From Isurus oxyrinchus (Eukaryota), in assembly GCA_026770705.1 (NCBI GenBank), contig JANJGN010000007.1, forward strand, positions 96,782,001-96,846,000: a stretch of 64,000 nt of DNA, in the 5' to 3' direction. Shown here piece by piece: positions 1-64,000 of this stretch (position 1 is its first letter; every line of letters starts with the position of its first letter). The notes beneath the pieces were generated by a model that ran no database searches, had not been told where the DNA came from, and saw only the letters and a program-made list of their open reading frames with translations. Position numbers and translations under genes: made by a program.

Positions 1-136
1 CAGCGGGACGAGGCTTCCAGTACATTGGAAGAGGCACTGCCAATCCAGAAAGGGACATATTGCATCTGCGTGATATCTCATCCCACGCTCCAGGCTCCGA
101 AAATAGATGTTCATCTTGTATCCAACTGGAACGCGG
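1..136 (+). pseudogene. 3' part of an Ig C1-set exon, paralog of the 27441-27740 exon; probably pseudogenic
   Basis: Frame 1 reads QRDEASSTLEEALPIQKGTYCICVISHPTLQAPKIDVHLVSNWNA(G), then a phase-1 donor G|GTAAG at 136/137. It aligns with YELSSYLE...VTCQVTHRTL...VPNWK(G) of the intact gene. The start 'agc ggg ac gag' versus 'aac ggg ctt tat gaa' suggests a 4-nt deletion. No intact downstream TM exon found. Confidence 0.8.
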
Positions 137-21654: not shown

Positions 21655-22830
21655 GTTGTATTCCTTCCTAATTCCATGCTGTGCCTGCGTGCTCACATTT
21701 TGAACTTCTTGTACACAACCAGGCCAAAACATTCTCAAGTCTCTCCCCTTTTAAATAATATTCTGCTTTTATATAGTTCCTGCTAATGTTGACAATCTCA
21801 TATGTTACGACATTAAGCTCCATATACCAAATTTTATGCTACTGAGTACTACTCGGACGATTGTTTGCACCCTTCTCATAAATTGGTTTCATAACTATCT
21901 CTGTGTAGTCAGAAAATTTGGCGATAACGTGCTTGGTCCCCTCGTGCACGTCAGTAATACATTTTATAAATAGTTGAAGCCCCAATACTGATCCCGGTGG
22001 CCCCCAGTAGTTGCAGGTTACCAATCCAGAAATGACTCATTTATCCCAATGCTAATGTTTCCTGTTAGTTAGTTATATCTCTCTCCATGCAAAAAAAGAA
22101 AATGCCCTCAGCACCATGAGGTCTTTCCTTGTGTGGTAACATTTCTCGTAGCACATTATATCAAATGTATTTTTGGAACACCAATGCACTGCGTCTACTG
22201 GGTCCCCCTTGTCCCCCCTGGTTTATACATCCTCAAAGACGTCTAATACATTTGTACCAATTATCTTCCACAAAAACATTCTGACTTTACTGGAATATTC
22301 TCCGATTTTCCAAATGCTCTCCGGCTTCTTCATTAATGCTCATTCAAACATTTTTCAAATGGCAGATATTTGACTTAAGGGCCTACAGTTTTCGGGTTTC
22401 TCGCTGCTTCTTTTCTTAAATAAGCTTGTTTTCTAATCTTTTGTTTCCTTTCCTGAATCTAGGGAATTTTAGCAAGTTACAATGTCTCCTTTATCTCTAC
22501 AGCCACTTACTTGCGACACTAGGATACAAACCATCAGGTTCAGAGGGCCGATCAACATTTAATCCATTAGAGACGCTGATTTTTTTTCGTTCAGTGGCAG
22601 TGATTGCCTTACATTCCTGCCGCCCTTTCCTCCCTTGATATTCCACTATTCTCGGGCTGCGTTTTTTGTCTTCTACCGTAAAGATAGTTACAAAAATTGT
22701 TGCAAGTATCTGCCATTTTCTTGTTTGCCATTATTAGTTCCACTGTCAAATCAGCACCTTATATTTGTTTTAGACGCTGTCTTCCTTTTTATATGCTAGT
22801 AGAATCTCTTCCTGTCTATTTTACATGTTT
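21050..22830 (-). mobile_element. CR1 LINE RT-to-3' end, degenerate
   Basis: GPPGSVLGLQLF..IAKFSDYTEI (21839-22024) and RALVKALLGYSVHLCRPYLRRDIFVLETFQRRF (21225-21602). Confidence 0.85.
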
Positions 22831-25159
22831 TTCTTTCTTCCTTTCATATTATAATTACATAAATGCAGATACCTCGAAAGGTTGTGGGACTGGAAAATAT
22901 TATAAATATAGGAAGTAGTGAAGCCATGGGGAGATTTGAAGGGAAATTTGCGAATCTTAAAATGTCAGCATTGCATGAGCCGCAACCATTGTAGATCAGC
23001 CAACACAGCTGTGAAATGTGAACAGAAGATGGTGCAAGCAAGCAAGTTAACGGAGGTAGAATGTAGAGGACCAGGTGAAATCCTTTACAACAGACAATTT
23101 AAGATGTATTAAACATAGAAATGAAGATTTAAGGATCCATAGTCCTGAGGCCGTTGTGAAGTCGGCAGATATTGTGCAGGAGAAATTAAGTGGTCTCAAT
23201 ATGAAGCCTGAAGCTCATATCAGGGTCAACTATTACAAAATGTTGCGAATAGTCTCTACATTACAATAACTTTCTCTATTCCATGCTCAAGTGCAGGTAT
23301 TCTCTGTGAAGATTAACATTTAAAAGCGTTATCTCATTGCCTATTCTTACTATCAAACTGAATAAGCATGCACTTCCCCACGTTACAATTCATCAATGAC
23401 CTTGTGGGTCATTTACTTCACCAGTATATATCTATTTTCAGAACTATGTTTCCTCCTCACAGTTTGTACACAAATCGAGCTATGCATCAGCAAAATTTCT
23501 ATATTTCTAATGGTCTATTTGTCTAAATCATTAATGTGAATTTTAAATAGCTAATTGCCTTTCATTGATCCTCGCCACACTTCATTAGCTTCAGCCTGAA
23601 AACTTACAAAAATGATTTTCCTAACCTAGCCTTCCTCCACGCTAATTTATCACACAATTTCCATCTTTATCTTCCATATTAGCCTTTTGAGTGACAACTT
23701 ATCTAATGCCTTTTGGTAATCCACATACTCTGCATTCCTTGGCTCCCCTTCATCTACCCTACTATCTACATCATCAGTAAAATAATTAAGTTGTCAAGCA
23801 CAAAGGAGAATTAACATTTTGCGAAAATGTGTAATTAAAACAAAACTAATCTTCTTTGTTACAGGACAATCTACTCACAGGAACAGTGGCTAATCTGCAA
23901 ATGCCACTTTAGCTCAATCCAAACAGTTTACAAACAATAGGAAAAACAATTTTCTACTGTATTGGTAAACAGCATGGCGCACTACCCAGGAACAAACACC
24001 ACATTTTTAGATAAATCATCACTGGGATGTGAGTGTCGGAGCTAAGCCAGCATTTGTTGCCCAGTGCTAATTGCCTCTGAAAAGGTGATGGTGAGCTGCC
24101 TTCTTGAACTGCTGCAGTTCATGTGATGTAGGTACATTCACAGGGCTGTTAGAAAGGGATTTGCAGGATTTTGATCCAGCAACAGTTTGGGATCGGCGAC
24201 GTATTAACAAGTCAGAATGCTGAGTGGCTTGGCGAGAACTTCCAGATCATGCTGTTCCCATATTGAAGCGTTAATACAGCTTGTCTCAGAATAAGGAGAC
24301 TTGTGTCATTCTTGCTTTGCAATTTCATTTAATTCTTAATCCTAGCATCAGTTGTCTTGAAAGATATTGATCGATGTGGCATATTGTTACACAGAGGACG
24401 GAAAAAGACAACGGAGTATCACCACATCCTTCAAATCTGTGACCCACATTGTTTTGTTATGATATTTATGATTGCAGTCGGGTAAGTAGCTGTGTACGAA
24501 TAATGTTGAAGAAAAAACATGACAATTGAACATCTAGGATTAAGCATTGCAGAAACCTTCAGGAAGGATATATGTTATCCTTACATGGTTTGGCCGAGAC
24601 TCCAAACCTACAGCAATGTGATTGCTTGTCAGCCGCCTTCTGAAATGACCAAGCAAGGCCAGTGCAAGCGCAATTAGGGACGGGCAACAAATACTGCCTT
24701 TGCCAGCGACGCCCAAACCCCACAAAAGAATCAAGGGGAAATAATCCTTATTTCATTTGCAGTTCTTCCCAGGTTGTGGGTGTGGTGCAAATTGCATGAA
24801 GAGGAGACATGGGCTGCTACAAGTCAATTGCACGCCGATTCCATGAAAAAGGGACCAAAAACGGTGAAGAGGCGCCCACTCTCTTTACCTTCAGAGTATT
24901 TAGGACCAAAGACCAACACATCGTTTTGAAATTGTACTGTGCAATTACTTGTTTCTGGGATTTGTTTCATGGGGCATATTCGGTTTGATTTATCCCACAC
25001 CTCGCCACCTGCAGCCTTGTGCAAGGATGGTAAATCCTTTCAATGAATTGAAAATACAATGAGTTGCTGAAACATTATTTTCAATCTTAAAAACCAGAAT
25101 TTTAATTCTGATGATCCGTTTAATTGTTCATTCTGGTCACATTTTCCGCGTCAAAAATT

Positions 25160-25345
25160 AGGTTGACCATGACAACAGCAAAACTCTGGGGCCAATCACG
25201 GATACTTATTCAAATGTGCTGACCACGTATGTTGCGAAGGGCTGATTGTCCCGCCATCGGTTGACTTGGCCCATCCGATAGGCAGTCAGCACATTCAATT
25301 AACTTGGAAGTTTAATTCCGTATGTGGTTGCCAAGTAACCTGGGC
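25160..25345 (+). promoter_or_regulatory. Putative proximal promoter of the V-C1-TM gene
   Basis: CpG-enriched stretch just upstream of the ATG with CCAAT (25192), ETS core GGAAGT (25306), RUNX TGTGGTT (25323), and RFX X-box-like GTTGCCAAGTAAC (25327-25339) and GTTGACCATGACAAC (25162). Motif matches only. Confidence 0.4.
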
Positions 25346-25375
25346 TCAGTATATTGACAATTTCTAGTGTTGAAA

Positions 25376-25433
25376 ATGTTTTTGAACGTTGTTTCTTCCC
25401 CATGTGCAAATATCCTCATCATTATTTACGCAG
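25376..25433 (+). CDS. Leader (signal peptide) exon of a non-rearranging V-C1-TM IgSF gene
   Basis: aaaATG: MFLNVVSSPCANILIIIYA, then phase-1 donor CAG|GTGTGT. A 129-nt intron splices in frame to (D)IVAGQIKV, the split-leader layout of Ig/TCR genes. Confidence 0.75.
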
Positions 25434-25562
25434 GTGTGTATTTCGTGCATTCCCCTTCTCCCAAACTGCAACCACCTCTAAAGTTCTTCTTCGTTCTTTC
25501 ATCCTTTTTACTTCTGACACCATAGAAAATATTTCCTTATGATTTGCATTTCCTCCTCACAG

Positions 25563-25883
25563 ATATTGTAGCTGGCCAGATAAAAGTTTTCCAAACCCCC
25601 GGAAGTGCTCAACGGTTGGCGGGTGAAAACATTACTTTTTATTGCGCGTTTCCTCTTTTTCAAGATACTGCCAATGTGAATATTTATTGGTGGAAACTGG
25701 GCGAAGCTGGGTTTCTGCAGCCGGGATCGGACATCAGAAAACGATTTCTTCTTTTGAGGAAAGGCGAAGCCTCGCTTCAGCTCCTGGATGTCAAGGCCGC
25801 GGACTCGGGAGTTTATTACTGCGGAGTAAAACATCTGGTTACCCGATTTACAAATGGAACTGGGTCAAAGCTTATTATCTACG
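25563..25883 (+). CDS. VJ-type V-set Ig domain exon (germline-joined)
   Basis: Acceptor cctcctcacAG. DIVAGQIKVFQTPGSAQRLAGENITFYCAFP...IYWWK...ASLQLLDVKAADSGVYYCGVKHLVTRFTNGTGSKLIIY(V) has both canonical Cys, the Trp, DSGxYYC and a J-like GxG..L.I G-strand in the same exon. Donor G|GTAAG. Confidence 0.95.
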
Positions 25884-27440
25884 GTAAGCGAAAAATGTAT
25901 CTTAAATTATTCCGTGCGTGATTCTTGACACACGATACCGAGCGTTTGTTTTAAATAAGATGATCATTGAACCTTGATCTTTTGCTTCCCAGTGGCTCTA
26001 GTTTGGGACATATTCAATCAATCCATTTCTTCCATCGTAATCGAAAATTATACTCCACGTCTTACTGCTTATGATGGATAATGATATAAAGGGCACACGG
26101 GAGAGATATCCAACAGATCATTAATCTGATATCACGCGTTTTAAACGATCAGAATCGTTAAGATAACACGGAGTTGTGTTTGAGAATTGAAATGTAATTT
26201 TATTGGTTTTCAATTGACGAAGAAGCTGCTGTAGATCGCGACTTTGCGCCAAAGTATAAAGTGGGTTGTAATGAATTGGAAGCACGTTGACTGGTCTTTT
26301 GATTTATATTTCCATTGAAGTCAATAAAATACAATGAGAAGTGTTGTATAATGGGGCCACTCATTCGCTTCCATCACTTCACACTATTGCTCAACGTCAA
26401 GAGCTAACGGTGCCGAGGGACAAAGCGAATATTCACTCTCGATTCTTTATACACTGCCTAATACTCCCGGCATTCAGTGCAGAAAAGTTATTTCAGAACA
26501 AATAGAATGTCATATAAAAGCAAACGATTATGTATTTTGTATTGGGATACATCCATTATTAATTTGGACAATTGGTGGAAGTTATATTTTCAATGTCTTG
26601 AAGTATAGCATTAACTGGGAACCGCTAGTCAATTGATTGGGCCCCAGTGAAACTTTATCACTTACAGCTTGATTTCGCTGAACACGTGATGGCGGTGCAT
26701 GACAGGTCTTGCCCTTGCAAGTCGGGGAACAACTTCTAGCCCACGGACATGAACAATTAACCAAGGGAATCAGGAATTTGTTCTCGCAGCGGGCTGTTCC
26801 TCCAAAGGTTTTAGTGTCGCAGTAGCTCTCCGAGATGCTCAGCACTGAAGTATGTGGAAGAGTGTTAATGTGTTATACTTAACTGAAAGTTACGTAGTAA
26901 AGTCACGCTAATAAAATCAGGGTTTGAGGATTCCAGTGTAAGGACTCTGCTTTTGATATGATGAATTTTAACAAACAATCTCTTTTGGACAGAAAAGTAT
27001 AGTCGTTGAAGCTTTTCTTCAGGTTTTAATTATTGTTAAACAAAACAATACAAATCTTCTTATTTTCTTTTTCTGTCTGTGACATCACTTTTCCTTAATG
27101 CTATATTTCTTTACTTATTATATTGCTTCCAGAGCCTGACTGAATTTTGAAATAATTGCTAAAACAAACATTTGCTGGCTTAGGTTCGACATTATTCACT
27201 TTTTTATTTAACCTTATTCATTCGACTGATGCGCAGTGGAATGTCCTCTTCATCCAGTTTCCTGTTACCCTGCAGAGGTTGCAATACAAAATACCTTTCT
27301 AATCACAGCATAGTCCAATGCAAAATGCTATGGAGAGTTCATGGGCATGTACAAGTTTAATGACTAGACGAAACTTTTCTTTGACTGCACAGAACAGCAT
27401 CCGATCATTGCGACACGCCTGTCTCTGATTTATTTTGCAG

Positions 27441-27740
27441 TTCCTCCAATTCCGTTAAGCATCAAGTCCGAATCATCTGCGAATAATGTATTGGAAACTT
27501 TAACTATTTTGTGTAAAACGGCTGCTTTTTACCCGGATAGTATCAACGTAACTTGGTACAAGGATAACGTTTCTATCGAAACGGGGATACAGTCGACAAA
27601 AGACCTAAATTCAAACGGGCTTTATGAACTTTCCAGCTATTTGGAAGTCACAGGAGCTGTCACTTCTGTAACCTGTCAGGTAACTCATCGCACGCTAATG
27701 ATTCCAGTTAACGCCACCTTCACTGTCCCAAATTGGAAAG
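27441..27740 (+). CDS. C1-set Ig domain exon
   Basis: Acceptor tattttgcAG. (V)PPIPLSIKSESSANNVLETLTILCKTAAFYPDSINVTWYKD...NGLYELSSYLEV...VTCQVTHRTLMIPVNATFTVPNWK has the C1 hallmarks CxxxxFYPxxIxVxW and CxVxH. Donor G|GTGAG, phase 1. Confidence 0.95.
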
Positions 27741-29410
27741 GTGAGCCAAATAATGGAGCAATCAAGTGTTTTAAGATTTTTTTTTTTGCAGATTATTAAG
27801 AAGATGCGATTTTACGATGCAACGAAATTTAAATTAATGCCCTTGCTAATAAAACCCTTCAGAGTTTTCGTCCACTTCCTTAACATTCAACTGTTGGTCA
27901 ACATCCTCTCCAAAATGACACATTTCAAATCTACACAAGAATCTTGGGGTTGGAGCATGCAATAAACCCATTATTATTCCCTATAAGCCCAGCTAGCTAG
28001 AACTGTGGAGTTTTGGTTTTAAGTTATATCCTATTATCTCTCGAAAGAACTTTTGAAAACCGCTCTCCTTCATAGACAATGTTTTGCCTGCACCAAAGTT
28101 ACAAGTCCCAGGAAATAACCCATTATCTAAATGTTCATGAAGCCATGGAAAACAGGCTTTTCATGCAAACCGTTGAATTTGTTTTATCCACAGCTGCTGT
28201 CACCAATTATGACGTCCTCCCTTAATGTTCTCGAATTGTCTGAACAGTAGGCTTAATTAAGGGTTTTATTTGTATATCATTGTTAATAGTCACTTAACCT
28301 ATGTTTCTCTTCTAACCACGAATGATCTGCCACAACCATTTATTGTTTCTTTATGTAAACATTTATTGCCAATTATACTCAGAATACACAAATATAGGAA
28401 GTCATTTTTTTTCTGGCATGTTGCCTCAAAGCTGTCTTTTTCACATTGGAATGTGAGTTCATATAAGAAGCAAGGGCGTTTATTATTGTCCCTTAAGTCA
28501 ACAAGGTCACCACTATATCATTATTTTTGGATGTTAAGTAAATTAATCAGCCCAGTCTCCCACTTAATATTCCATCATTCTGCAATGTAGCAGGCAATTC
28601 CTCTGCTTCATGAACAGGGATAGATAATTAACTGAATAGTATTCTTCACCCGGAAATTATTTTGGCAATTCACTTTCCAGACCTAATTTCCCTTCATCCG
28701 AATAAAAGTCGTGAAAATCTCCAACTTGACCCATACCCTGAAAATAAGATAAGCATGGAATACCTCCACAAATTACCTTTTACGATGGATGTATTAATTG
28801 TACACAATAAGGTAAAATCAGTTAATTCCAACAAGTCTATTGAGACCTTGATTCTAAGCACTTTCGATTCTTTTCCCATACGAAATTAGGCACTCTGCTG
28901 CTGTATTTCCCAAGTTAAACTGGATCACATCTTATTTGAGAGAAAATAAGCAAGTATTCCATGTTGAAAAAACTGAATTTGCAATTAGGCAACGAGCAAA
29001 TAGATCCACTGCTACACAGTGATGTAATCAAAGGGAATGTTTCCTCTAGAACACTATTACATTCTTTTTGGATCTACTGAGCCTGGTAAATCACGGAGCA
29101 TAGATCAGTTTCTGTGATCTATTTGGTGACACAATGAGGAGTGGTTTCTCACGATGCACCCTTCAACCCACATATGTTAGCAGAGTTCTTCTACTTTCTG
29201 TATAATGGGAATGATCCACAGAACAGTAATAATTAGTTAATTATTGGTTCAAAAACCATGTTCGGAATGTCTGGCCTGTTGTAAGTAATAATTAAGGGTC
29301 AATTTATTTCAATTCTATTGCTGAATCCTAAATCTGTTTGTTTCTTATAATTGTATTTATTGCATACCACCTATAATAAATCGATGGTTCTTGCATATTC
29401 TATGTTTTAG

Positions 29411-29518
29411 TTCGCAGGTTCCAAGTTTCTCTGACTCATCGGTTTATATTAGGTTTCCTCGTGATTCTCATTCTGACAATTATCATTGTGGAACATTTGA
29501 AACGGCGCCCTTTTAAAG
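29411..29518 (+). CDS. Transmembrane exon with N-terminal Arg
   Basis: Acceptor tatgttttAG. Phase-1 reading (V)RRFQVSLTHRFILGFLVILILTIIIVEHLKRRPFK. Donor AG|GTAAG. Hydrophobic run followed by basic stop-transfer residues. Confidence 0.85.
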
Positions 29519-30158
29519 GTAAGACAAGGTATTCGCCATTCAACTGAACTCACTGGGCTACAGCTTGCATGCAGCAAATGTCATATTGCCTGAGGCGCTA
29601 ACGGTAGACAACAACAATAATTCTCAAAATTAGAAATAAAATTGTTGTTTAGTACATTTAAATACATCTAACATTGTGCCCGGAGGCATTAGATTTATTA
29701 CAGTAAACCCTGGGTGTTCACTTCCTCCCTTTATCCCAGAGCGTTTGATAGTGAGATACATCTACCTTTCCTTTCTTTGTTACAATTTGTCCAAGAAACA
29801 GTCCTTTTTGCGATGGTGTTGCATAATGATATAAAACACAGGTCCTTTAAAGTTCTATTTCATGCAATCATCCTCATAGATTGTTTATGGCTAGTCATTA
29901 AAGTGGAAGGTTCCACGCAAAATTTGGTTCAACAATACAGACTCTCAGCTTATCTCAAAGAAGGAATTACTACTAAATGCGAAGCATTTCTCAAAACATG
30001 ATAGTAGAATAGACATTTTAATAAATAGTGGTGAGCAGCAATGTCGAAATATGTGATAAGTGAAAATCACTGTTTGTTTCCAAATTTCCGGGAAATCTTT
30101 TTAAGGCAATCATCCAGTTAAACACTTTACAAGTTTCATTCAGCTTCAAGCCTTTCAG

Positions 30159-30793
30159 GGCTTGGCCTAAATAGCCAAGTGGTTATGGTACTGGGTTTGT
30201 AACCCCAAGATCAAGAGCTCAAATCTCACCATGGCAAATTATGAAACAATGTATTTTCATCTGAATAGGAACAGATGGAAATGCGTTTGTACTTGAAAGA
30301 GTTACTTTATGGGGACCCGGTGTGGAAGGGTGTCGGGAAGGAGGAGGACCTCCTCGTGAACCTGCTCCTGGGCCTGGCCAAGTTGGCCGTTAAAAGGTCC
30401 GGGTAGCGGGCGATCGACGGAGGAGTCCCGCCCGATTGTTTGTCCCTCTTCCGCGGCTACGTTCGCTGCCGGATGTCCCTGGAGAGGGAGCACGCGGTGT
30501 CTGCTGGCACTCTCGAGGCCTTCCGTGCTCGGTGGGCACCGCGGGGACTGGGGTGTTTTGTTGACCCCTTTAATCACATTTTGATTTAAAGTTTGTAAGT
30601 TTCCTTTAAACTTTGTTCTTGGTTTTACAGCTGACCTGAATTAGGGGCTGTGCCTGATTTATCCCGATTTTGTTGATTTGGTTTTCATTTAAAAGATTAT
30701 CAAGAGTTCAAATCTCACAATGGCAAACTATGAAACAATGTAACTTCATCTGAAACAGAGGGAAACGGGTTTGTACTCGAAAGAAATCAAGAG
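30159..30793 (+). mobile_element. Composite tRNA-derived SINE plus Tx1/L1 3' fragment with 14-bp TSD
   Basis: tRNA-like head (A box TAGCCAAGTGG, TGT anticodon loop, B box GAG(C/T)TCAAATC). Internal 30306-30590 encodes EEDLLVNLLLGLAKLAV...LFRGYVRCRMSLEREHAVSAGTLEAFRARWAP (Tx1-type ORF2 end). TSD ttcaagcctttcag at 30145-30158 and 30794-30807. Confidence 0.8.
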
Positions 30794-31102
30794 TTCAAGC
30801 CTTTCAGCCAAGAACATATGCGTTACTGCCTAATCAGGAAAACACGTATTTTGCGACGTGGTATGCGTGCTTTGCTCAGCCAAATAAAGAAAGGAGCCGA
30901 GAACAATTCTTTCATCTTCCCGTGTTTGTACCGCTGCTGATGTAACTTCGCAATTTAAATCCATCAACATATTGTACGCATCAAGTACAGCTCTGGCCTC
31001 GATGTAACTAAAGTTCAGCTATTTCCTACTAACTGCAAAACTTGTAGATCTTAATTTATTTTAACCATATGTATTGACATCAACTGCTCTTTCTTTATAT
31101 AG

Positions 31103-31107
31103 CCTAA
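31103..31107 (+). CDS. Probable terminal coding exon (Ala-stop), followed by 3'UTR with AATAAA at 31410
   Basis: Polypyrimidine acceptor ctgctctttctttatatAG|CCTAA. Phase-1 join gives ...RRPFKA*. Other acceptors are not excluded. Confidence 0.45.
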
Positions 31108-33599
31108 TATTATGCACATGAAAAGTTAGAACGGATTATACAGCGGAAGCATACCTTCGCAAAAAAAGAAAACGACATTGTGTTGATAAATGCCGACGCA
31201 AATGTGTAGGATTTAGTGACAGATAATGCGAAAGTTAGCCATAAAAACGATGTTAGGCACAGAAAAGGCAACAGCTGTAGTAGTGGTTAAAACAAAAGTC
31301 AAACCAATAGAAGGGTTTTAACTTCCCCATGTTTTCGTTGATTTAGATCTTTTTCAGAAGTAAGTGTTGCATTGACTGGTAAAGCTGGAAATATAATTTC
31401 CTACTGAAGAATAAATGCCAAGAATGAAATATTTGCGTTGCCACCAGGGAAAAATGCAACTAATCTGAAAACAGATTCCACATAAAATGAAATTGTCTAT
31501 ATCGTTGGATGGAGTGGTAACGGTTATTATATTGTTGTTCATCCGAAGCTCCATTTGATGTGTTCTTTGGGAATACTCCAATGCCGTCCTGTTCACGGGT
31601 ACGTTGAGCAAGAGAAGTCCACTGAGCGAAACTGACATCCCTGTCAGTCTTTCATATTGCACAACATATTGCACAAAATACTTAGTGTTTTAGCTGTTAT
31701 TTTTTTCGGACATTAGTATCTAATTCATGAGCGTGACTAAAATAATGTTTACCTGGTGTTAATTTTAACTTGTTTCCACGGGATATCGGCAATATTATTA
31801 CTCCGTGAACATTTTCAGCAACACACAATGTTGCTTTATGAAATAATTGTCAATGTAAACTTTGTTTTTTTTTTCATCGACGTGATTACATTCTTGGAAA
31901 ATGTGTTTTTGTTTTACATAATTACACCATGAATTAACTTAAATTGCTAATGATTCAATGTACCCAACATGTTCTAGCAGCGTGGTTCAAAGTAGCGTAA
32001 GGTTACAACTTTCAGAATACCTTTCCTTCCAATATTTCCATCTCCCAAAACTTAGCAAACTTTTATGCTCTCAATTGAATTGCTTTAAACTAACATTGAA
32101 AAAAGGTTGATTTGTAAGGTATCATGTTCTGTTAAACTTGAAACTTCACAAATACTTTGAACTATATTATTGAAGATGCATTCGTTATGATATCGGTTTT
32201 GAGACTGAATAAAATATTGAGGACAACATTGTCTACTTCAAAATGGTTTCCTTTTAGGTAATGAACCGGTAGTAAAATACTTCGCATTAATGGCAAAGGT
32301 AACTGGTGGTGATTTTAAAACATGAAGCAAAATTCTATCAGATTTGCTAACTCCAGTGCAGTTCTGAGAATTATCTGTAGTTAGAATGCCACAATACTCT
32401 CCGCCAAAGCATGGGAACCGCTTTGACATATCCTTGAGAATTCATGGATCAAGCATCAGACTGAACTGAAAGTCGTTGCCTATAGCGAACACGCTGCTTG
32501 GAAAAGACATGTCCCCCGAAGTATGCCGAAGTTCTGTAAAGCATGAATCACCAGGAGTAAGGTATATTCTCATATAGGTAGTGGATTCCACCCCTCAATG
32601 TGTAATCAGCAGTATACTTACATGTTCCACTTTGATCACACATGCTTCTCTGTAAATCTAATTTCAAATGCGGGTTATTTCAGAAATAATCTCCACTCTT
32701 TTGAATTGACGAGAATAGAATGCCGAATCTCCATTCAACGTGCTCTCCCTTCGCTTTCATTGCGAAGAGCTCTGATTAGAATTTGCAACACGTTATATGC
32801 AAAATGGAACTCGCAATGGTTTAGGCAGGAAATCTCCAGGACCACAACAAAGAGCAGGAATTTTACGTCATTGAAATGAATGGTTGATTATATCAAATCT
32901 GAAGTGGGATGATAGTAACATTTTAGAAGTGCGTAATTATTTACCTGCCATATACAATACCATGAATAACACTGAGCAGGGAATAAAGAAACATCAAGCA
33001 TTTAAGTGTTTGCCGGAGAAACCATCAAAGTAGTAGGGAATGTAGCCTATAAGGATAACGTGGGAGAAAAGATGCAACAATGAGTGACAAGCGGCCAGAC
33101 AGGGATGACAGAGGTATTAGGAAAGGATAGTGATAGATCTGCATGCATGCTGAGGCAGATACCTGGGTTCGCTCTGTTTTCGAGACCAAATTGTTCAGTT
33201 GTTACTAGAACGCACTGAAATTGGGAAAAAGGCAGAAAAAAGGAAGATAACTGGAGGAAGAAATCAGCCACTAGGAGGTGTATTCTGGACGTCCTTAGGT
33301 TCCACGATGATCATGAACTTCTTGCCACCTACTTAGAATGATGAAGTCCCGGATTTGCCACGAATTGTTTAGAATTGCATAGAACCTCCTAAACAGAAAT
33401 TTGCAATCCAGAAAATCTCCATGTTTATGCTCCACATGAGGCTACTTGATCTATCTCTATCAAGCTGTACCAGCAAGCAATTTTCGTTTTTTTGTTTTCG
33501 CGCAAGTGTACAATTGTGTGCATGTTACTTAAGTATATATTATGCTGCATCCCTATTAACCACTATTTCCTGTAACGTATGCATAATTATCAAATTGGA

Positions 33600-34250
33600 G
33601 AATAGTCTAGCACAGAAAGATACCTTTCAATCCAAATGTCCATTCTGAATCGCTGAAAAATCTGACCACGTAGAGTGACGCCGTCCATTTACCACATTTT
33701 GCCATGAAACACCTTATGCATCTCCACAACTGTGATTTGAATGATACCACGAACTTCTATTTGTCAAATAATTCTGGTATGTGGTGGATATCAAATGCCT
33801 TTTACATGTCCATTTATCTAATGAACTATCTTTAACAACGCTCTTTTGCTTAAACAAATAAGTCAATCAGGTTTCACAGGAAACATTTGACTTTAACAAA
33901 CTAATTCTGGTCGTGGCATATAAACTCATGTCTTTCCTATGTAAGACTGAAAGCTTTCCTTGACTATCATCTCCAGCAATATTCCCATCACTGATGGACT
34001 AGTAGAATTTCCCAGTTTCACTCTCGTCCCTAGTTTGCAACCCCCCATTTCTCGGACACAACCTATAAGAGCAAGGAAGATTTAAAGATGGTTATTGGAG
34101 CTGCGACTATCTCCAGCCTAGCTTCCTTCAAAAACATGGGATGACTTCCATCGTTGATAGAGGACTAGTTAATTTTGCTATTTGGCACCTATTTTTTGCT
34201 TATGCGTATCCTTTCCAAGATTGGATTTTATATTTCTACACTACATGCTC
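33600..34250 (-). mobile_element. Old CR1 RT fragment
   Basis: Degenerate reverse-strand CR1 ORF2 pattern (tcaaatgccttttacatgtcca; tcaatcaggtttc...). Confidence 0.45.
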
Positions 34251-34784
34251 ACCATTTATTCTAGAATTCAATAATGTTGATAAGCAATAAGTACCTGGTG
34301 CCACAGACTCAGAGAGCATAATATAATTAAATGTAAAATTCAAAATGAGGCCCTGCCAGTGCAGTAGGACGACCAGAAATATGTTACAGTTCCTAAGTCG
34401 GGATAAAGGGCCTCACAAAGTTGGGAAGGATTTAAGTCTGCCCTGAGAACATAAGAATCAATTTTGCACGACCATTCCGGGCATTGAAGTATTCTGACAT
34501 TTAGGATTCATTTTCGAAATGCGTGAGTTAAATTATCCCTGAGGCAGCAGCTTCCAAATCCATCGTTTGGCATTGTGGTGTGATGCATTAATTGCCATTT
34601 ACATGAAAAGGTGTCTGTGCCATCAGAGCGAGGAGCGAAGCATTCTAGAAGGAGTGAATCTGTCCTCAGGTTCAGTGAGGCCACACTTGGTACCCCCCTT
34701 CATACAGCATGTGATCAATATGAGCAGCTCCTGCTGAGTGCTGGGGAAAAGGGGACCAAGGGTTCACAAACTCCTTCTGTAGCA

Positions 34785-35670
34785 GAAACAATAAGTAAAA
34801 TAGGAAAGGTGGCCAAACCATGGCTTACAAGGGAAATTAGAGATAGTAGTATATGCAAGGAAGAGGCATACAAATTGGCCAGAAAAAAACAACAGACCTG
34901 AGGATTGGAAGCAGTTTAGAATTCAGCAAAAGAGGACCAAGGGATTGATTAAGGAGAAAATAGAATACAAGAGTAAGGTTGCAGGGAACATAAAAACTGA
35001 CTGTAAAAATTTTCATGGGCAGGTGAAGAGAAAATAAATTGGTGGAGAAAAATGTAGGTCGCTTAACATCCGAAATAGGGGAACTTATCATGGGGAACAT
35101 AGAAATGGCTGACCAACTAAATACATGCTTTAGTTCTGTCTTCACAAAGGAGGACACTAACAGCATACCAGAAATGTTGCATAATACAGGGTTTATTGAG
35201 AGGGAGGAAATGAAATAAATCAGTATTAGTAGGGAAATGGTGTTGGGGAAATTGATGGAATGGAAGGCCGATAAGTCCCCAGGGCCTGGTAATCTACATC
35301 CCAGAGTACTGAAGGGCGTGGTCCTAGAAACAATGGATGCATTGGTGGTCATCTTCCAAGATCTTATAGACACTGGAACAGTGCCTACAGACTGGAGAGG
35401 AGCTAATGTAACCCCACTCTTTAAAAAGGGAGGCAGAGCGAAGGCAGGGAATTATAAACCATTCAGCCTGACGTTGGTAGTGGGGAAACCTCTAGAGTCC
35501 AATGTAAAAGATTTAATAGCTGAGCAGGTAGAAAACAATTGCAGAATTGGACAGAGTCAGCATGGATTTATGAAAGGGGAATCATGCTTGACAAATCTAC
35601 TGGTATTTTTCGAGGATGTAACTACCCTTAGTTGATGAGGGGAGCCAGGGGATGCAGTTTATTTGGACTT
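34785..35670 (+). mobile_element. CR1 LINE ORF2 internal fragment, relatively well preserved
   Basis: KPWLTREIRDS..KEEAYKLARK and KADKSPGPGNLHPRVLK...VPTDWRGANVTPLFKKG...SQHGFMKGESCLTNLL. Breaks at YLDF against the ERV env. Confidence 0.95.
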
Positions 35671-38268
35671 TCCTTAATCTGTCTTAAATTCTCTCGGGCA
35701 TGTTCCAGTGCCCAAGATCCATTGGTGCTCCTTTCGTCTGAAATATTTTCCCCTATTTCACTCAATTTGTCGATAGTCCCCACATGACTTTCGGGTACGG
35801 TAGCCAGGCTTTGGATTAACCGTGTCATGTCATGTTCTGTATTTAATTGGGTGTTATGAATTCCCTGTCCTCGTTCTAGAATCTCCTTAAGCTTAAAGCT
35901 CAGGGTACAGTTGCTAGGTCGATGAAATTAACTACTGATGTCTCTTTATTGAATAACATGACAGTGTCATTTATCAGGTTGCGCTCGACGTGGTTCCCTC
36001 ACAAGCCTGGTCACATCTCACTGTTGAACTGAGATGCTTCAGTCATCAATTGGCCTATTCGAGCCGCATATAGTGCTCGAATATGGGTCGAGCAATACTG
36101 GGACGGTGCAATTCCGATATGTTCAAGAATACGGGTACCATTATCATACAAAACTTTCTAATTAACCAGTACCAAACCATTCATCGGTCCTGGATGCATA
36201 GTCGGACAAGGTGGGTCAGTCGGTGTGGTTTTAGGGGTTTTAATTTTCTGTACTTGGACTGTGGAAATAGATATCAAACGTGGCTGGATAGTGGCGGACC
36301 TCCCACGCCTGATCTGAAGCAAACCCTTACTACAATTCAGAAGAATTTGTTTCCCTATTGTTACATTTATCATTTCCCGTTACTTGTCGCATTTGGCACT
36401 GTCGATGCTGTGCCAAAGTTCCTCCTGCCGTGCGGGAAGAGCAGTGATGATACCCGACCTTGTTGCCAGTACTGATATGCACACAACCAGGATCGTAGAT
36501 CTGTGGAGACATTAACAACGGCTCCCGTTCTCTGGGTTACTGCTTGGTCAATTGTCATGTATCTTTAACCGTGTGTATTGCCTTCATTTATTTCCCGTTC
36601 TCATATCTACAAGTGCTCATGTATCACTTGTCATAATTAACTCATATGGTCCATGCCTGTTCGCTCCAGGCTCACATTGACCATCACCTTATTCCCCACT
36701 TGGTCCATTGTTGCTCTTTGGATTTGCCTGTTTCCATAACCTTAATCATCTGTCGGTCTGTGACTTCCTTCCTTAACTCATGCAATCATTTACTTATTTC
36801 CCTCACATGGTCTAGCATCCTTCCTTTTAGTGGTCCTTCATCTCCCACTCCCCATATAATTCCCTCGGGTTACTGCATTGCTGTCCTTGTCATTATTTCA
36901 AATGGAGTGAACCCGGCGGTCCTATTTGGGGTAGCTCCTTAGGTGCCTTTGACTATTGGACTGTTCCCTGTCTCTTGAATTGCTTTTGTGATTGATGATT
37001 TTTTTTAAAGTTCAGTTCATCCTTTGCACCATCCCCGAACGCAATGGCCGATAGGACATATGGAATTTGTGCTTTTATGTAAATTTACACATTTATTCCT
37101 GTGAAATGAGTTCTCTGATCTGAATCCATCTGGCTAGGCACCCCCACTCCTTCCAGTTTACTTTCTCCTGCTGCTGTCTCATATCAGACCTCAATGCCTT
37201 AAACAACTCTACAATGCACCTTCTGATCTTATTTTTCAATGGCTTACTATCTTCACTTCCTGTGGCAGTTCTCTCTGGAAGCCACTTAAATCTGCCTGTC
37301 ATTAAGGTGTTGATCCTGTGGTTTAACTCTTTGTAGCTCGCATGCATATTAATACAATCAGTATTAATACATCTATTCAGTCTTTTTTCAGCTTTCCCTT
37401 TACCTATATCCATCTTATGGTAAATTGTTGTTAAGCATTATTTCTCCTTACATTTCAATTCCTGAACTACAAATTCCACCTAGTTTTACCTTTAAGTTTT
37501 TTTTCCCTGCCCATGATCATCCTAAGATTCTCTTGATTTCAGTTTCTCTATTGTCTTTATTGTTTATAATGTTTCCTTGTTCTTTAGGCCCTATTAACTA
37601 TTCCGCGTCTATGAGGATCTCTGTCTCTAGATCATTGTTATCTCCCCCTGTGCATTTCCAATCTCTCAGTCAATGGCCAGATTATCAAATTCACTTCCCT
37701 TAAAACAGTTTGTACATTATGTCCTCTTTCCCTAACTCCTTCTCCTACTTTCCACATGCCATCTTACACATGCAACAGCTACCATCTTATCTTGTCTGGA
37801 GAGATTTTGCAGTCCAATAACATATTCTCATAAGTGTTAAAACAGAAATCAAGCATTGACATGTTTTGCTTCCTTATCTTATTCTCAAACAACATCTTAT
37901 TTTCGAACTAAATTATTTCTGACCTTCTTTTGTATTATCCTAGATTCGTTAGCTCGGCCAAAAATTGGATTTCTGCCTAACTTTGTCAGGGTCTTGTGCT
38001 TAACTTCATAGTTTTGGAACAGACTTTACAAATACATCAGCTTGCAGCATTTGATTAGTGCCAATTGTTGTCAAACCTTTTAAAATGAAATAAAAACAAA
38101 AAAACTGAGGATACTGGAAATCCAAAACAAAAACAGAATTACCTGGAAAAACCCAGCAGGTCTGGCAGCATCGGCAGAGAAGAAAAGAGTTGAAGTTTCG
38201 GGTCCTCATGATCCTTCGACAGAATTTGAGTTTGAGTCCAAGAAAGAGTTGAAATATAAGCTGGTTTA

Positions 38269-38270
<2 letters not shown>

Positions 38271-38325
<55 letters not shown>

Positions 38326-38355
38326 GGGGGGAGCGTGCAGAGAGAGAGAGAGAGA
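38271..38355. repeat. Compound microsatellite (GT)n-(G)n-(AG)n
   Basis: Directly visible inside the inverted pLTR. Confidence 0.95.
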
Positions 38356-38738
38356 AGTGGAGGAGGGGGGGGGTAGTGGTTGTAGGGACAAACAAGCAGT
38401 GATAGAAGCAAATCATCAAAAGATGTCAACAACAATAGATCAAAAGAACACATAGGTGTTAAAGTTGGTGATATTATCTAAATGAATGTGCTAATTAAGA
38501 ATGGATGCCAGGGCACTCAAGGTATAGCTCTAGTGGGGGTGGGGAGAGCATAAAAGCTTTTAAGATATTTAAAAATAATGGAAATAGGTGGGAAAAGAAA
38601 AATCTATATAATTTATTGGAAAAAAAAGGAAGGGGGGAAAAGAAAGGGGGTGAGGATGGGGGAGGGAGTTCACGACCTAAAGTTGTTGAAATCAATATTC
38701 AGTCCGGAAAGTTGTAAAGTGCCTAGTCGGAAGATGAC

Positions 38739-40392
38739 GTGGCCGTCATCTCCTCTGGGGATCTTCCTCCCACAGCTTCCAACCTGATAGTTGCCCAACC
38801 TCGGACAGCCCGCTTGTATCTCCTACCCAAAATCCACAAACAGAACTGCCCCAGTAGACCGATCGTCTCAGCTTGCTCCTGCCCCACAGAACTCATTTCT
38901 CGTTATCTTGATTCCCTTCTCTCTCCCCTTGTCCAGTCCCTTCCCACCTACATCCGTGATTCCTCTGACACCTTACGTCGCATCAACAATTTCCAGTTCC
39001 CTGGCCCCAACCACTTCCTCTTCACCATGGACGGCCAATCCCTCTACACCTCCATCCCCCACCAGGATGGTCTGAGGGCCCTTAGCTTCTTCTTCAAAAA
39101 GAGGCCCGAACAATCCCTATCCACCACTACTCTCCTCCATCTGGCTGAACTTGTTCTCACGCTGAACAATTTCTCCTTCAACTCATCTCACTTCCTCCAA
39201 ATAAAAGGTGTGGCTATGGGTACCCACATGGGCCCCAGCTATGCCTGTCTCTGTATGGGGGTATGTGGAACATTCCTTGTTCCAGTCCTACTCCGGCCCC
39301 CTTCCACAACTCTTTCTCCGGTACGTTGATGATTACTTCGGTGCCGCTTCATGCTCTCGTCGGGACTTGGAAAAATTTATTAATTTTGCTTCCAATCTCC
39401 ACCCCTCCATCATTTTCACGTGGTCCATCTCTGACACTTCCCTTCCCTTCCTTGACCTCTCTGTCTCAATCTCTGGTGATAGACTGTCCACCAATATCCA
39501 TTACAAACCCACCGACTCCCACAGCTACCTCGACTACAGCTTTTCACACCCCGTTTCCTGTAAGGACTCCATCCCATTCTCTCAGTTCCTTCGCCTCCGT
39601 CGCATCTGTTCCGATAATGCCACCTTCAAAAACCATTCCTCTGACATGTCCTCCTTCTTCCTTAACCGAGGTTTTCCACCCACGGTCGTTGACAGGGCCC
39701 TCAACCGTGTGCGGCCCATCTCCCGCGCATCTGCCCTCATGCCTTCTCCTCCCTCCCAGAAACATGATAGGGTCCCCCTTGTCCTCACTTATCACTCCAC
39801 CAGCCTCCGCATTCAAAGGATCATCCTCCGCCATTTCCGCCAACTCCAGCATGATGCCACCACCATACACATCTTCCCTTCACCCCCCCTATCGGCATTC
39901 CGTAGGGATTGCTTCCTTCGGGACACCCTGGTCCACTCCTCCATCACTTCCTACTCCTCAACCCTCTCCTATGGCACCACCCCATGCCCACGCAAAAGAT
40001 GCAACACCTGCCACTTCACTTCCTCTCTCCTCACCGTCCAAGGGCCCAAACATTCCTTTCAAGTGAAGCAGCATTTCACTTGCATTTCCCCCAACTTAGT
40101 CTACTGCATTCACTGCTCCCAATGTGGTCTCCTCTACATTGGGGAGACCAAACGTAAACTGGGCGATCGCTTTGCAGTACACCTGCGGTCTGTCCGCAAG
40201 AATGACCGAAACCTCCCTGTTCCTTGCCATTTTAACACTCCACCCTGCTCTCTTGCCCACATTTCTGTCCTTGGCTTGCTGCATTGTTCCAGTGAAGCCC
40301 AACACAAACTGGAGGAACAACACCTCATCTTCCGACTAGGCACTTTACAGGCTTCTGGGCTGAATATTGAATTCAACAACTTTAGGTCGTGA
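38739..40392 (+). pseudogene. Penelope RT plus GIY-YIG endonuclease, 5'-truncated, one frameshift near 39257
   Basis: LYLLPKIHK..RPIVS, QIKGVAMGTHMGPSYA, FLRYVDD, C..KRCNTC, VYCIHCSQCGLLYIGET. The two ORFs overlap across a G run. Confidence 0.93.
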
Positions 40393-43225
40393 GCTCCCTC
40401 CCCCATCCCCTCCCCCTTTCTGTTTCCCCCTTCCTTTTTTTTCCAATAAATTATATAGATTTTTCTTTTCCCACCGATTTCCATTATTTTTAAATATCTT
40501 AAAAGCTTTTATGCTCTCCCCACCCCCACTAGAGCTATACCTTGAGTGCCCTACCATCCATTCTTAATTAGCACATTCGTTTAGATAATATCGCCAACTT
40601 TAACACCTATGTGTTCTTTTGATCTATTGTTGTTGACATCTTGATGATCTGCTTCTATCACTGCTTGTTTGTCCCTACAACCACACCCCCCCTCCTCCAC
40701 TTCTCTGTCTCTCTCTCTCTCCGCTCCCCCCCACCCCACACACCTTAAACCAGCTTATATTTCAACTCTTTCTTGGACTCGAACTCAAGTTCTGTTGAAG
40801 CGTCATGAGGACTCAAAACGTCAACTCTTTTCTTCTCCGCCGATGCTGCCAGACCTGCTGAGTTTTTCCAGGTAATTCTGTTTTACTTTTAAAATGAAAA
40901 TTCGCTTTTGAGAAATTATCAGGAACCAAACCTTAAATTTTAAACTTTGTAAAAACTCTGATTTACACTATCAAAATTAAAACGACCTCTTTCTTATGTG
41001 TATTGATTTGTATCCAAGTTATAATTCCCGTATGTTTATCGACACAGTCTTTATCTTAGATAGCATCCTAATGATTCAAAAATAACCTTCTAAACTGCAC
41101 TTCACTTTACACCTCAAGAGTGTTCCAAAATAAAATTGCAGTGCTGTTGGGATGCAGATTTCCTTTCATATTTAATTAATCTAATCAAAAGATGTTTCTC
41201 TATTGGAACCACTTGGAATTGTGTTTATTCGTTTTGGTTTTCCTAGAATCCCTTGAATTTAGGTAATTTCCCCCCACAGAATGTTAGAATACTAACTCGT
41301 ATGAGTTAATGTAACTCATATGTATCAATGCCAGTTAGCTTTGAAGCTGGCGATGCTCATCTGCAAAGGGGGTGGTATAAAGGTTGGTTCATCTAACCCT
41401 GTCTAGATTTATGATACCTTTAAATTTCAACACTGCCAGAAATCTCATTTCAAACATTATACTCAAAACTTTGGAATCTTTTAATATATTTTCCTTTAAT
41501 CTAACATGGGGCTTTCAGCCCCAAAGTGTTGAACTGCACATACAAATGACAATTAAGGAAGAAAACACTTTAAAGCTCACATACAAGTGCTTCCTTGTGC
41601 AAAAACAAATATACATTTAGAAGTATGTATTTATGTACCTGCATCCTTAACTGACCGCCTTAAAATCCTTATATTCTAAATGAAGCTTCAAATAGCAGTG
41701 GCGGAAATAAGGATCCACGACCTGGGACAATTAATCTGACGAAAGCTCACATCTTCCCTATAAGCCTGTCAGTGCTTATTAAATCACCTATGGGTACGCC
41801 ATTTTTCCCTCTTTCTCTCTCTGTCCAGCACAAACAGCATGAATCAATTCATATTTTTAAGTTACATAAAATTGAGAGTATACCTTTCGGGTCCCAATCA
41901 TCCTTCCACATTTTCAGGAAAATCTCGTCATCCCGCAGGGTACATTATATACCTCCAATATGTTTCTCCCTCCTCCAAGGCATCCTTAACTCCCCTCTCA
42001 AACTCCGTTTGCAGGGCTGTCACCTTCTACCGATCTGAGACGTCCCCAGGTTTTGCCCATTCTCCACTCCTCGACTGCAGGGGTAATCTTCCCCAGATAT
42101 CCCCAGGGCATTTAGCCTTCACCAGTATGTGATTATCAATGGGTTGCATCGCATGGAAATCCTGCCTTTCCCGCAGTTTGATCCAAAAATCTGGATTGCT
42201 ATGCCGAGTTTTAATTGTCAGCAGTTCTTTAAACAAAATCTGTTTTACCCCCGGGCTGAAAGGTGCAGGATTAACTTTCACTGTAACCCTCTCAATCTCT
42301 TCATGAGCCCCTATTCCTCAGCCTCCTTTCTCCCTCCAGGTTTCAATTGCCTTTCCTGACTTCACTTTCCCTCACAGTTATCGCCATAGGGGCAATGGAA
42401 TTAAATGGGCACAGGGGCGGTTGGTTCATATGAGGGCGGAATTGCATCAGCTCCATCATATTTTTCTCCTTCGGAGTTTTCCCCTCTTGATCAGTGTCAC
42501 TGCAGGCCCTGCCGCCACTGGTCTGATCTGTCCTGGATCTGACTTTGTTTCTCTCTCCAATCGACTGGAATTTAGTATTAACCCTTCTGCACAACAGTAG
42601 GTTCAGTGTGATAATAACCATCATCCCTTTATTTTCCTTATCCTTTTCTTGCTCTATCCACCACTGTTTATTTTCTCCGGGGGTTCCCTGAGGGTACTAC
42701 CCCTCCTTCTGCATTTTAGTGATTATTTTTGACTGTTGTTCCGCTTATGAACCTCGTAGTAGAGTACGCGGTTCTTCAGTCGAGTTCCATAGCGCTATTT
42801 TATTTCCTTGAAGGGATTTTATTCCAATTTTCCGTCTCTCTCTGCGCGGTAGGTTCACACGGTCCTAAGAACTTAATTATCTGAGGTATGCATGTGCGGT
42901 TTCACTGGGGTCTGGCCTTCCTGCTCGGCTTTGGCTAAGGTTTTATTTCAAACCGTAACCCGCCAGCACGGCTCCGCCCTCCTCTTAACTGGGTAATGGT
43001 TCCGGCCTTCCTGTGCGGCCTTGGCCAGGCTAGCCCACCTGCACGGCTCCGCCCGTTACCGCTGACGCCTCCTATCTCCTGTCCTGAGCCCTCCTCTTGA
43101 TTCTTTGATACTTGACTTGTCCGTTCTCGGGTAGGCTTATTGCACTAACTACGGGTGGTAAATGAATATACTCAACCACTTTGCAGAGTCGTCCCGAGGA
43201 TCCGATCCAAGTATCCTGCCGCCTA

Positions 43226-47094: not shown

Positions 47095-48975
47095 CCGGCA
47101 GAGCAAAGGGGATATGAGAAAGCTCCGGCTGGTGAAAGTAGGGAAAATCCCAGGAAATTCTTTAAGTATATAAATGGGTTGAGGATATCCAGGGAAAGTG
47201 TAGGGCCCATTAGAGACCATTGGGGCAATCTATGGGTGGAGCCAGAGGACATCAGTAGAGTTTTTAATGAATACTATACATCCGTCTTCACCTAAGAGAA
47301 TGAGGATGAAGGTTTGGAACTCGGAGAGAGAGACTATGTGGTTCTTGAGCAAATTTACATCGGGAGTAACAAGGAATTGGAGGTGTTGGCAGGCCTAACA
47401 GTGGACAAATCTCTATGTCTGGATGTTTCGTGTCCCAAACTGTTGAGGGAGGCAATGGAGGAGACTGCAGGAGCTCCGGCCTAATTTTTTAATTCCTCCC
47501 TGGTCATGGGGGTGGTGCCAGATGTTTGGAGAACAGCTAATGTGTTTTCGCTATTTAAGAAGAGCTGTAGAGATAAGCCATCGAAATACAGCACAGTGAG
47601 TCTCACATAAGTGGTAGGGAAACTTTTGGAGAAAATTCTGAAGGAGAGAAACAATCTCCACTTGGTGAGGCAATGATTGATCAGAGATAGTCAGAATGAC
47701 ATTGCCAAAGGGAGGTCATGCCTAACAAATTTGATTGAATTTTTTGAGGAGATGACCAGGTGGGTGGTGCAGTTATTGTAATTTATATGGATTTCAGCAA
47801 AGCCTTTGGCAAGGTCCCAGATTGGTGACTTATAAAGAAGGCAAATGCACATAGGATACAGGGTAATTTGATAAGGTGGATTCAAAATTGGCTTAGTTGT
47901 AGGAGACAGAGGGTGATGTCAGAAGTCTGCTTTAGTGACTGGAAGACATTGTCCAGGAACATACTACAGGGATCTGTGCTGGCTCCCCTATTATTTGTCA
48001 TTTATATAAACCGTATAGATGACTATGTGGGGTATAGATTTAGTAAGTTCGTGGATGACACAAAGATTGGCCGGGTGGTTAACAGTGAGATCGAATGTCT
48101 TGGGCTACAGGAAGATATAGATGGGATGGTGAAATGGGTAGATAAGTGGCAGTTGGAATTTAGCCCTGAAAAATGTGAGGTGATACAATTTGGAAGGACT
48201 AATATGACAAGGAAGTATTCAATGAACGGTATGACACTAGAAAGTTCTGAAGAACAAAGGAGCTTGGCCTGTGTGCCCATAGACCTCTGAAGGCAGAGGG
48301 ACATGTTAGTGGGCTGCTGGAACAGGCATATGGGACACTTGCCTTCATCAATCGAGGCATAGATGACAAAAGTAGGCAGATCATGTTGGAGTTGTTTAGA
48401 ACCTTGGTGAGGCCACAGCTGGAATACTGTGTTCAGTTGTGGTCGCCACATTAAAGGAAGGATGTGATTGCACTGGAGGGGGTTCAGAGGAGATTCACCA
48501 GGATATTGCCTGGGATGAAACATTTAAGTTACGAAGAGAGGTTGGAGAGACTAGGATTGTTCCATTGGAACAGAAAACACAGGTGCGACCTATTCAAGGT
48601 GTCCAAGATTATGAGGGGCATAGAAAGGGTGGATAGGGAGCAGCTGTTCCCCTTAGTTGAAGGGTCAGTCACGAGTGGACATAAGTTCAAGGTGAGGGCC
48701 AGGAGATTTAGGGTGGATGTGTGGAAAAGCTTTTTTACCCAGAGGGTAGCGACGGTTTGGAATGCACTGCCTGTGAGGGTGGTAGAAGCAGGTAACCTCA
48801 CATCCTTTAGCAATTACCTTGATGAGCTCTTAGCACATTATAACATTCAAGGCTATGGGCCACGTGCTGGTAAATGGTATAAGGTAGGTGGATTAGGTTT
48901 TTCTCAAGTGTCTGGCAGACCCGATGGACCGAAAGACCTCTTCTGCACTGTGTGATTCCGCGATTTGGTGACTCT
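47095..48975 (+). mobile_element. CR1 LINE, RT domain to 3' end
   Basis: IRWIQNWLSCRRQRV...QGSVLAPLLF...KFVDDTKIG (47868-48290) and ALEGVQRRFTRILPGM...FFTQRVATVWNALP (48464-48955). Ends in a tgtgattc-type tail. Confidence 0.95.
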
Positions 48976-63816: not shown

Positions 63817-64000
63817 TTCCACCACACCCTCTGAAAAGTAACTCTCAACAACCCGAAATGGATTAATCTGTGTCCCTTGCTGTCTTATTCTCGACATCTC
63901 CCTTTTACCCGAAGGATATCAGCTTCATTTGGTACAAACATGGAATGAAGACAACAACGGGGATAAACACCATTATTAAACCCAAGACCGCTGGAATATA
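63817..64000 (+). pseudogene. 5' part of an Ig C1-set exon, pseudogene paralog of 27441-27740
   Basis: Acceptor tttcatttttctAG. (V)PPHPLKSNSQQPEMD*SVSLAVLFSTSPFYPKDISFIWYKHGMKTTTGINTIIKPKTAGIY aligns with PPIPL...LTILCKTAAFYPDSINVTWYK...TGI...GLY. In-frame TAA at 63864 and loss of the B-strand Cys. Confidence 0.88.

Follow-up and report, generated by a model that had tools for sequence, protein, structure and literature searches.

The window, a 64,000-nucleotide stretch of Isurus oxyrinchus DNA, contains a gene predicted to encode an intact type I receptor of the immunoglobulin superfamily with a V-C1 ectodomain. This receptor is probably an activating member of a paired-receptor family, with a transmembrane (TM) arginine that would pair with an FcRγ or CD3ζ dimer. 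We base this reading on an arginine in the N-terminal part of the TM segment, a short tail, paralogues that combine ITIMs with neutral TM segments, and the presence in this genome of adaptor TM exons with their aspartate. The arginine-coupling motif alone is textbook and ordinary; the interest lies in the large paired family of single-exon VJ-C1 genes in sharks to which the receptor belongs.

Gene structure and ectodomain

Spliced from the window with orthologues as a guide, the receptor gene model comprises six exons and five GT-AG introns, one of which joins the leader exon to the V exon, and it translates into an intact leader-V-C1-TM protein of 271 amino acids (Table 1). The Carcharodon (white shark) model has the same length, 271 aa, and is identical at 251 of the 271 residues. 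Cysteines occur at residues 10, 47, 106, 151, 205 and 270, so that the linker between C1 domain and TM segment holds none of the six, as a preliminary description of this DNA had stated.

The same description called the ectodomains TCR-like, which is apt for the VJ plus C1 architecture only. This domain is compact, with 59 residues between its cysteines, and has NGTG where FGxG would be expected; its predicted fold, a compact V-set, retrieved VNARs as the top Foldseek matches, with TCR V, PD-1 and NKp30 near-tied. A wide VIA search left NCAM, VNAR and TCR domains tied, and no one family stood out across the sequence, atlas and fold searches, in which NKp30, TCR V, PD-1 and VNAR were nearly level. 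The NGTG motif of the G strand, which carries a glycosylation sequon, is invariant in 8/8 aligned paralogues.

Table 1 Features of the receptor gene and of neighbouring paralogues, in window coordinates
Feature	Position	Strand	Evidence
Upstream paralogue, 3' part of C1 exon	10..132	+	V at C7:96779919
Leader exon, ATG to phase-1 donor	25376..25433	+	N-terminal match to orthologue P0001 (score 90; runner-up 23)
V-set Ig domain of VJ type in one exon; NGTGSKLIIY as G strand	25563..25883	+	Pfam V-set E=3.5e-9; AF2 pLDDT 85.5
C1-set Ig domain exon	27441..27740	+	Pfam C1-set E=2.4e-14; contig 1 of run X1 (putative RNA) at 27496-27738
Linker, TM and basic stop-transfer exon	29411..29518	+	Family TM HMM E=3.4e-11
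TM Arg codon CGG, predicted adaptor-binding residue	29440..29442	+	Arg in 5/6 orthologue clusters
Glu at Arg+17, acidic TM C-end	29491..29493	+	Acidic +17: 10/19 Arg-type vs 2/66 other family proteins
Last exon of the preliminary description (candidate), A-stop	31103..31107	+	Possible acceptor; unused in orthologue models
13-nt tail micro-exon, DLFQ-K	31347..31359	+	Resembles DLVQK of P0001 and P0002
Last coding exon, K-EKCN-stop	31448..31463	+	In-frame match to P0001 end
Downstream paralogue, C1 exon start with stop	63822..64000	+	TM exon L019 also Arg...Asp type

Transmembrane segment and tail

The TM exon is in phase 1, with an AG at 29409-29410 and a donor GT at 29519, and its translation reads ...VSLTHRFILGFLVILILTIIIV-EHLKRRPFK. 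The TM arginine noted earlier is real, its codon lying in an in-frame exon with AG/GT borders; the TM letters first given for it had left out one Val.

The preliminary description also proposed a near-absent tail without Tyr motifs that probably ends in A-stop. No Tyr follows the TM segment in the 271-aa model, and the tail is short and Tyr-free under either ending, but it extends 17 residues past the Glu, not 9, when the gene ends at 31347/31448. The acceptor of the A-stop ending is real, but the Carcharodon model continues PFK-DLVQK-EKCN and the Cetorhinus model PFK-DLVQK. Among 184 candidate acceptors in 34.4 kb downstream, the one at 31347 is alone in giving at least three of five matches to DLVQK (DLFQK, 4/5), and reading through the intron after this micro-exon meets a stop at 31361-31363. 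The last exons are thus probably those at 31347 and 31448 and not that at 31103, a tail model based on automatic orthologue models and on indirect RNA support from a related species.

A long ITIM-bearing tail from another last exon, which had been named as evidence that would speak against an activating receptor, did not appear: the 34.5 kb that follow the TM exon yielded no family ITIM exon at E≤0.01. We also considered the EKCN-stop exon as a vestige of an ITIM exon, a reading that gained no support: tblastn gave no match there and the best blastn match to paralogues had E=0.17.

RNA support

None of the runs on record as RNA contains the stretch, and five putative-RNA runs share 0.05-0.09 of its sequence words. 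Among the joints listed for four putative-RNA runs over 22000-41999, a repeat-swamped set, none spans an intron of the receptor gene. In run X1 (putative RNA from a related species), a 404-nt contig with a depth of 7.25 covers 27496-27738, and the bin depths of this run, 2.64 at 27336-28002 and 1.2 at 29337-30003, equal 7.25 x 243/667 and 7.25 x 110/667, respectively. By this arithmetic, and for the related species, these depths fit one contig spliced from the C1 exon to the TM exon, without read-through and without an exon at 29740. Farther downstream, two putative-RNA runs reach a depth of 16-18 at 31338-32004, with an AATAAA at 32208; this would fit a 3' UTR but could alternatively reflect a repeat. 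Retroelement fragments, heavily covered by repeat contigs, lie at 35219-35632, 38727-40389 and 47829-48952, with RVT_1 matches at 38727-39326 and 47829-48287.

Orthologues in other sharks

V-domain identity of the six shark orthologue clusters is 64-94%, and tails of 5-17 residues occur in 6/6 of them. Conservation of the arginine, proposed earlier as a check, holds in part: it is kept in five clusters, whereas throughout the sixth (Chiloscyllium plagiosum, C. punctatum and Hemiscyllium ocellatum) its place is taken by Gln, with the rest of the TM segment and an Asp at +17 retained. As far as these sequences go, the Gln of the carpet sharks is the main fact against a strict requirement for Arg. 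Two catshark orthologues carry Val, not an acid, at +17.

The TM exon of the window gene holds an in-frame internal acceptor at 29451-29453 (AG 29451-29452). The equivalent site is used in a bamboo-shark isoform model (P0202), which loses the Arg segment, and another bamboo-shark isoform model (P0200) skips the TM exon.

Paralogue cluster

Searching the genome with the V exon returned 52 matches, 51 of them on the contig that carries the window (C7) and nearly all of those in two clusters at 96.4-97.6 and 108.6-110.0 Mb; 36/51 are stop-free. The C1 exon gave 99 matches, of which 49, including the best 37, are on C7. By these counts, about 50 related genes are located on one non-MHC chromosome. 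Two of them reach into the window at its ends (Table 1). For the upstream paralogue no TM exon was found (the best TM score in locus L013 was 25), and no V exon of the downstream paralogue was found in the window. In 400 kb of flanking DNA, a scan without masking gave 1280 reading frames.

We examined 40 paralogue loci of 10 kb each, of which 39 were anchored on the C1 exon and one on the V exon. A TM exon with a score of at least 40 was present in 31 loci, 10 with Arg at the column of the window gene and 21 without. Within these 10 kb, ITIM-exon matches followed 16/21 neutral TM exons compared with 2/10 Arg TM exons (Fisher p=0.006), and both matches behind Arg TM exons are interrupted by stops. 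Several loci of both TM kinds resemble pseudogenes.

The Arg TM exons fall into two classes. Four loci (L011, L017, L019 and L045) share with the window gene the pattern Arg-x16-Asp/Glu. A second class arises by a GGA-to-CGA change on a neutral TM, at L037:1405 and L049:1417 (C7:109.83-110.00 Mb), where the DNA is 76-87% identical to the Gly-bearing loci L038 and L047 and stop-carrying ITIM exons lie downstream; judged from these sequences, L037 and L049 are possible recent switches from inhibitory to activating, or else pseudogenes. Elsewhere in the genome, about two dozen near-identical tandem C1-domain matches at C16:85.8-88.5 Mb are probably, as a guess, a cluster-type Ig light-chain locus.

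Tail types across the family

Proteins with strong similarity were found in sharks, rays and chimaera; the matches in bony vertebrates, six in number, are weak (E 1e-12 to 3e-9). Current automatic names for the relatives, which are misleading, include tapasin-like, Ig lambda-like, B7-H6-like and SIRP-like. Of 196 proteins collected, 114 resembled the family; a TM segment could be scored in 85 of these, and 29 were dropped. Among the 19 proteins with a TM Arg, the median tail length is 28 aa and an ITIM-like match occurs in 4, of which a single one (P0020) combines Arg with a long, canonical ITIM tail, of 79 aa. The corresponding values for the 66 proteins without Arg are 78.5 aa and 39 proteins, with matches mostly to LxYAxL and TEYAxI (Fisher p=0.004 for ITIM-like match versus Arg in the 85 proteins, whose rows are not independent). 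Short tails also occur in many neutral-TM models. The acidic residue at +17 is concentrated in Arg-type proteins (Table 1), and both of the other proteins that have it carry Gln at the Arg column. Two observations suggest that the arginine reflects more than chance: most orthologue clusters keep it, and within the family it varies together with the kind of tail.

In a quick IQ-TREE phylogeny built from 64 V-C1 ectodomains, presence of the Arg has to change 10 times, and strong branches force at least 7 of these changes. Arg...Asp and ITIM proteins occur together in clades, for example P0010 with P0013, P0020 and P0025 (support 100) and P0033 with P0034, P0042 and P0066 (support 88). A tree-controlled test on 7 independent pairs found short tails with Arg in 4.2 and against it in 0.0 (median p 0.125, not significant), and absence of ITIMs with Arg in 3.1 versus 0.6 (median p 0.5, not significant); the direction is consistent with a pairing of Arg and short tail in these sequences, without reaching significance. 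If the orthologues with Gln or Val are included, the Arg-x16-Asp/Glu class requires 5 changes on the ectodomain tree, a distribution that suggests exon shuffling or conversion of ectodomains.

With clustered genes, related ectodomains and either a charged TM with a short tail or a neutral TM with an ITIM tail, the family looks, on its sequences, to be of the paired activating/inhibitory type. A third subfamily forms its own clade (P0039, P0043, P0045, P0046, P0047, P0070, P0093 and P0103, and locus L036) and has a TM segment starting with PWWIY, a juxtamembrane segment rich in Cys and a long tail that lacks canonical ITIMs.

Proposed adaptor coupling and alternative readings

In the mechanism that we propose, the TM Arg would pair with the Asp residues of a dimeric adaptor, FcRγ or else CD3ζ, and the activating signal would pass through the ITAMs of that adaptor. 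The receptor would be expressed on leukocytes, would hold its Arg at a membrane depth suited to the adaptor, and would have a ligand in common with an inhibitory paralogue. Candidate partners are encoded in this genome: assigned to ζ or FcRγ by reading their sequences, a CD3ζ-like TM exon (L051) lies on C18 and two FcRγ-like TM exons (L052 and L053) on two small contigs, all with Cys and Asp kept. A PDB search with the TM alignment gave 7 chance matches only. According to the relevant passages of PMC1440944, FcRγ-coupled receptors have Arg in the N-terminal TM segment, type I receptors that couple to DAP12 have a more central Lys, and the residues around the charge are largely exchangeable and matter little. 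NKp46 and NKp30 are described in part of PMC6514059 as using Arg for CD3ζ/FcRγ coupling, and passages of PMC6557307 and PMC2413239 state that FcRγ is often not needed by such TMs for arrival at the surface.

It is unlikely, in our judgement, that the receptor is instead an adaptor-independent decoy or adhesion molecule, with its Arg at the membrane surface and its short-tailed protein merely competing with inhibitory paralogues for ligand. The recurrence of Arg at one aligned TM column in many lineages argues against such a role, as does its association with short tails and an acidic +17. So does the length of the TM segment: the hydrophobic run behind the Arg is just 16 residues long, and the highest-scoring 21-residue windows take the Arg in; a hydrophobic run of 16 alone is short for a bilayer. 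This alternative draws its support from the three carpet-shark species that tolerate Gln and from the bamboo-shark isoform models without the TM exon or without the Arg segment, the latter by way of the AG that the window gene shares.

Still less probable is a different partner, either DAP12/DAP10 or a second V-C1 chain together with CD3 in a TCR-like complex. The V-C1 architecture is indeed that of antigen-receptor chains, and TCRα likewise has an N-terminal TM Arg, which serves ζζ, but the window gene lacks a linker Cys, a second basic residue in the TM segment and the polar residues of the CART type. DAP12 prefers a central Lys in type I receptors, as described in a section of PMC1440944, and the search for DAP10 returned only a single weak match, which contains a stop (E=0.41).

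A hidden, longer tail with Tyr, for example through the acceptor at 29739 (in frame with VRYIYL), which would make the protein an inhibitory or a dual Arg plus ITIM receptor, is very improbable: the pyrimidine tract at 29739 is strong and P0020 sets a precedent for Arg with ITIM in this family, but such an exon appears in 0/6 orthologue models, no family ITIM exon was found in the 34.5 kb downstream, and the X1 depth of 1.2 over 29337-30003 corresponds, by arithmetic in a related species, to the C1-bearing contig over the TM exon only.

Significance of the family

Coupling of the window receptor to FcRγ or CD3ζ gains its meaning from the family, which provides each shark genome with some 50 germline VJ-C1 genes of activating and inhibitory type and supplies candidate NK or myeloid paired receptors in the oldest animals with adaptive immunity. 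Through this family two matters would become testable, namely the wiring of antigen-receptor-like ectodomains to FcRγ/ζ outside the TCR-CD3 complex and the age of the Arg/acidic TM cassette. We found no published account of a shark VJ-C1 cluster by full-text literature search; shark papers of the Flajnik/Ohta group and supplements lay outside its scope, and a prior description is possible. Those parts of PMC12227049, PMC10751288 and PMC11599192 that we drew on do not mention the shark cluster.

More tentatively, and with doubts outweighing confidence, these genes may represent an undescribed paired system of VJ-C1 chains in cartilaginous fish on the scale of KIR/LILR. Its Arg-x16-Asp/Glu TM exon would be a 450-million-year-old counterpart of the tetrapod NxxR cassette, shuffled between ectodomain lineages, and new activating members would arise by a one-base Gly-to-Arg change and loss of the ITIM exon.

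Comparison with known receptor families

Rearranging TCR and Ig chains, which have a connecting-peptide Cys and CART residues, were considered and rejected as an identity for the window gene: V and J lie in one exon, no RSS-like site was found near it in 24500-28000, and the linker Cys and a second basic TM residue are lacking.

Identity with NCR3/NKp30 was rejected as well. A shark NCR3 family was reportedly described by Kinlein in 2021. The window gene resembles NKp30 in its single-exon VJ and its TM Arg, the latter being used in mammals for CD3ζ/FcRγ coupling (PMC6514059, in part), but it includes a C1 exon and is located on C7, and NKp30 is absent from the best 60 PDB matches of its V domain. 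MHC_I matches are on C21 (31/33) and C16 (2), none being on C7. On C21, an NKp30-like V exon at 100932728-100933051 (L094:2729-3052) adjoins MHC class I and matches human NKp30 with E=7e-12; the TM exon that follows it (L094:4874) has Arg but no acidic C-end. From its sequence and position, this C21 gene is likely the true shark NCR3.

With UrIg, UrIg2 and PRARP the window gene shares a single-exon VJ, a C1 domain, a split leader and the lack of RSS. Turtle V-C1-TM proteins, which we take to be PRARP-like, match weakly (24%, E=2e-13). According to portions of PMC12227049, UrIg is MHC-linked and UrIg2, with nine C1 domains, is linked to the AgR complex. Unlike these, the shark V-C1 family is multigene and paired.

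Receptors of the LRC type (NKp46, GPVI, FcαRI, OSCAR and LILRA) and TM1 of Xenopus XFL resemble the window receptor in their N-terminal TM Arg, acidic TM C-end and short tail, and like it they belong to large gene clusters with paired relatives that bear ITIMs (PMC6557307 and PMC2413239, in the passages on these genes). RxxLG/A had been put forward as the coupling signature; the one published, in those parts of the same two papers, is NxxR with DYT and an acidic C-end. The window TM reads LTHR, so it lacks the Asn of NxxR, and it has no DYT; Arg and the acidic C-end are present. Its ectodomain is VJ plus C1 by Pfam, in contrast to the LRC/FcR-type Ig domains of LRC receptors. Tweety, an LRC-flanking marker, was not found on C7 in a strict search with this one marker and matched on C15, C22, C39 and C56. 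The window receptor would thus work like LRC-type and XFL receptors but, to judge from its sequence, does not belong to the LRC type.

Likeness to the SIRP family (SIRPα, SIRPβ and SIRPγ) extends to the ectodomain, both having a joined-VJ V domain followed by C1, and both families including paired ITIM and charged-TM forms. SIRP ectodomains have two C1 domains (V-C1-C1), and activating SIRP forms have a central TM Lys for DAP12, whereas the window gene has one C1 between V and TM, and an Arg with no Lys in the hydrophobic run. A SEP-domain gene of the NSFL1C type neighbours SIRP; as single, weak markers of that neighbourhood, SEP genes were found on C5 and C12 and opioid-precursor matches on C5 only, with none on C7. 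Many relatives of the window gene are automatically named SIRP-like, and SIRPα is among the top PDB matches of the profile (E=2.2e-22), a ranking in which SIRP cannot be told apart from Ig, UrIg2 or CD276. SIRP is itself counted among joined-VJ genes in a part of PMC11599192, and by these sequence comparisons it appears to be the nearest architecture to that of the shark receptor.
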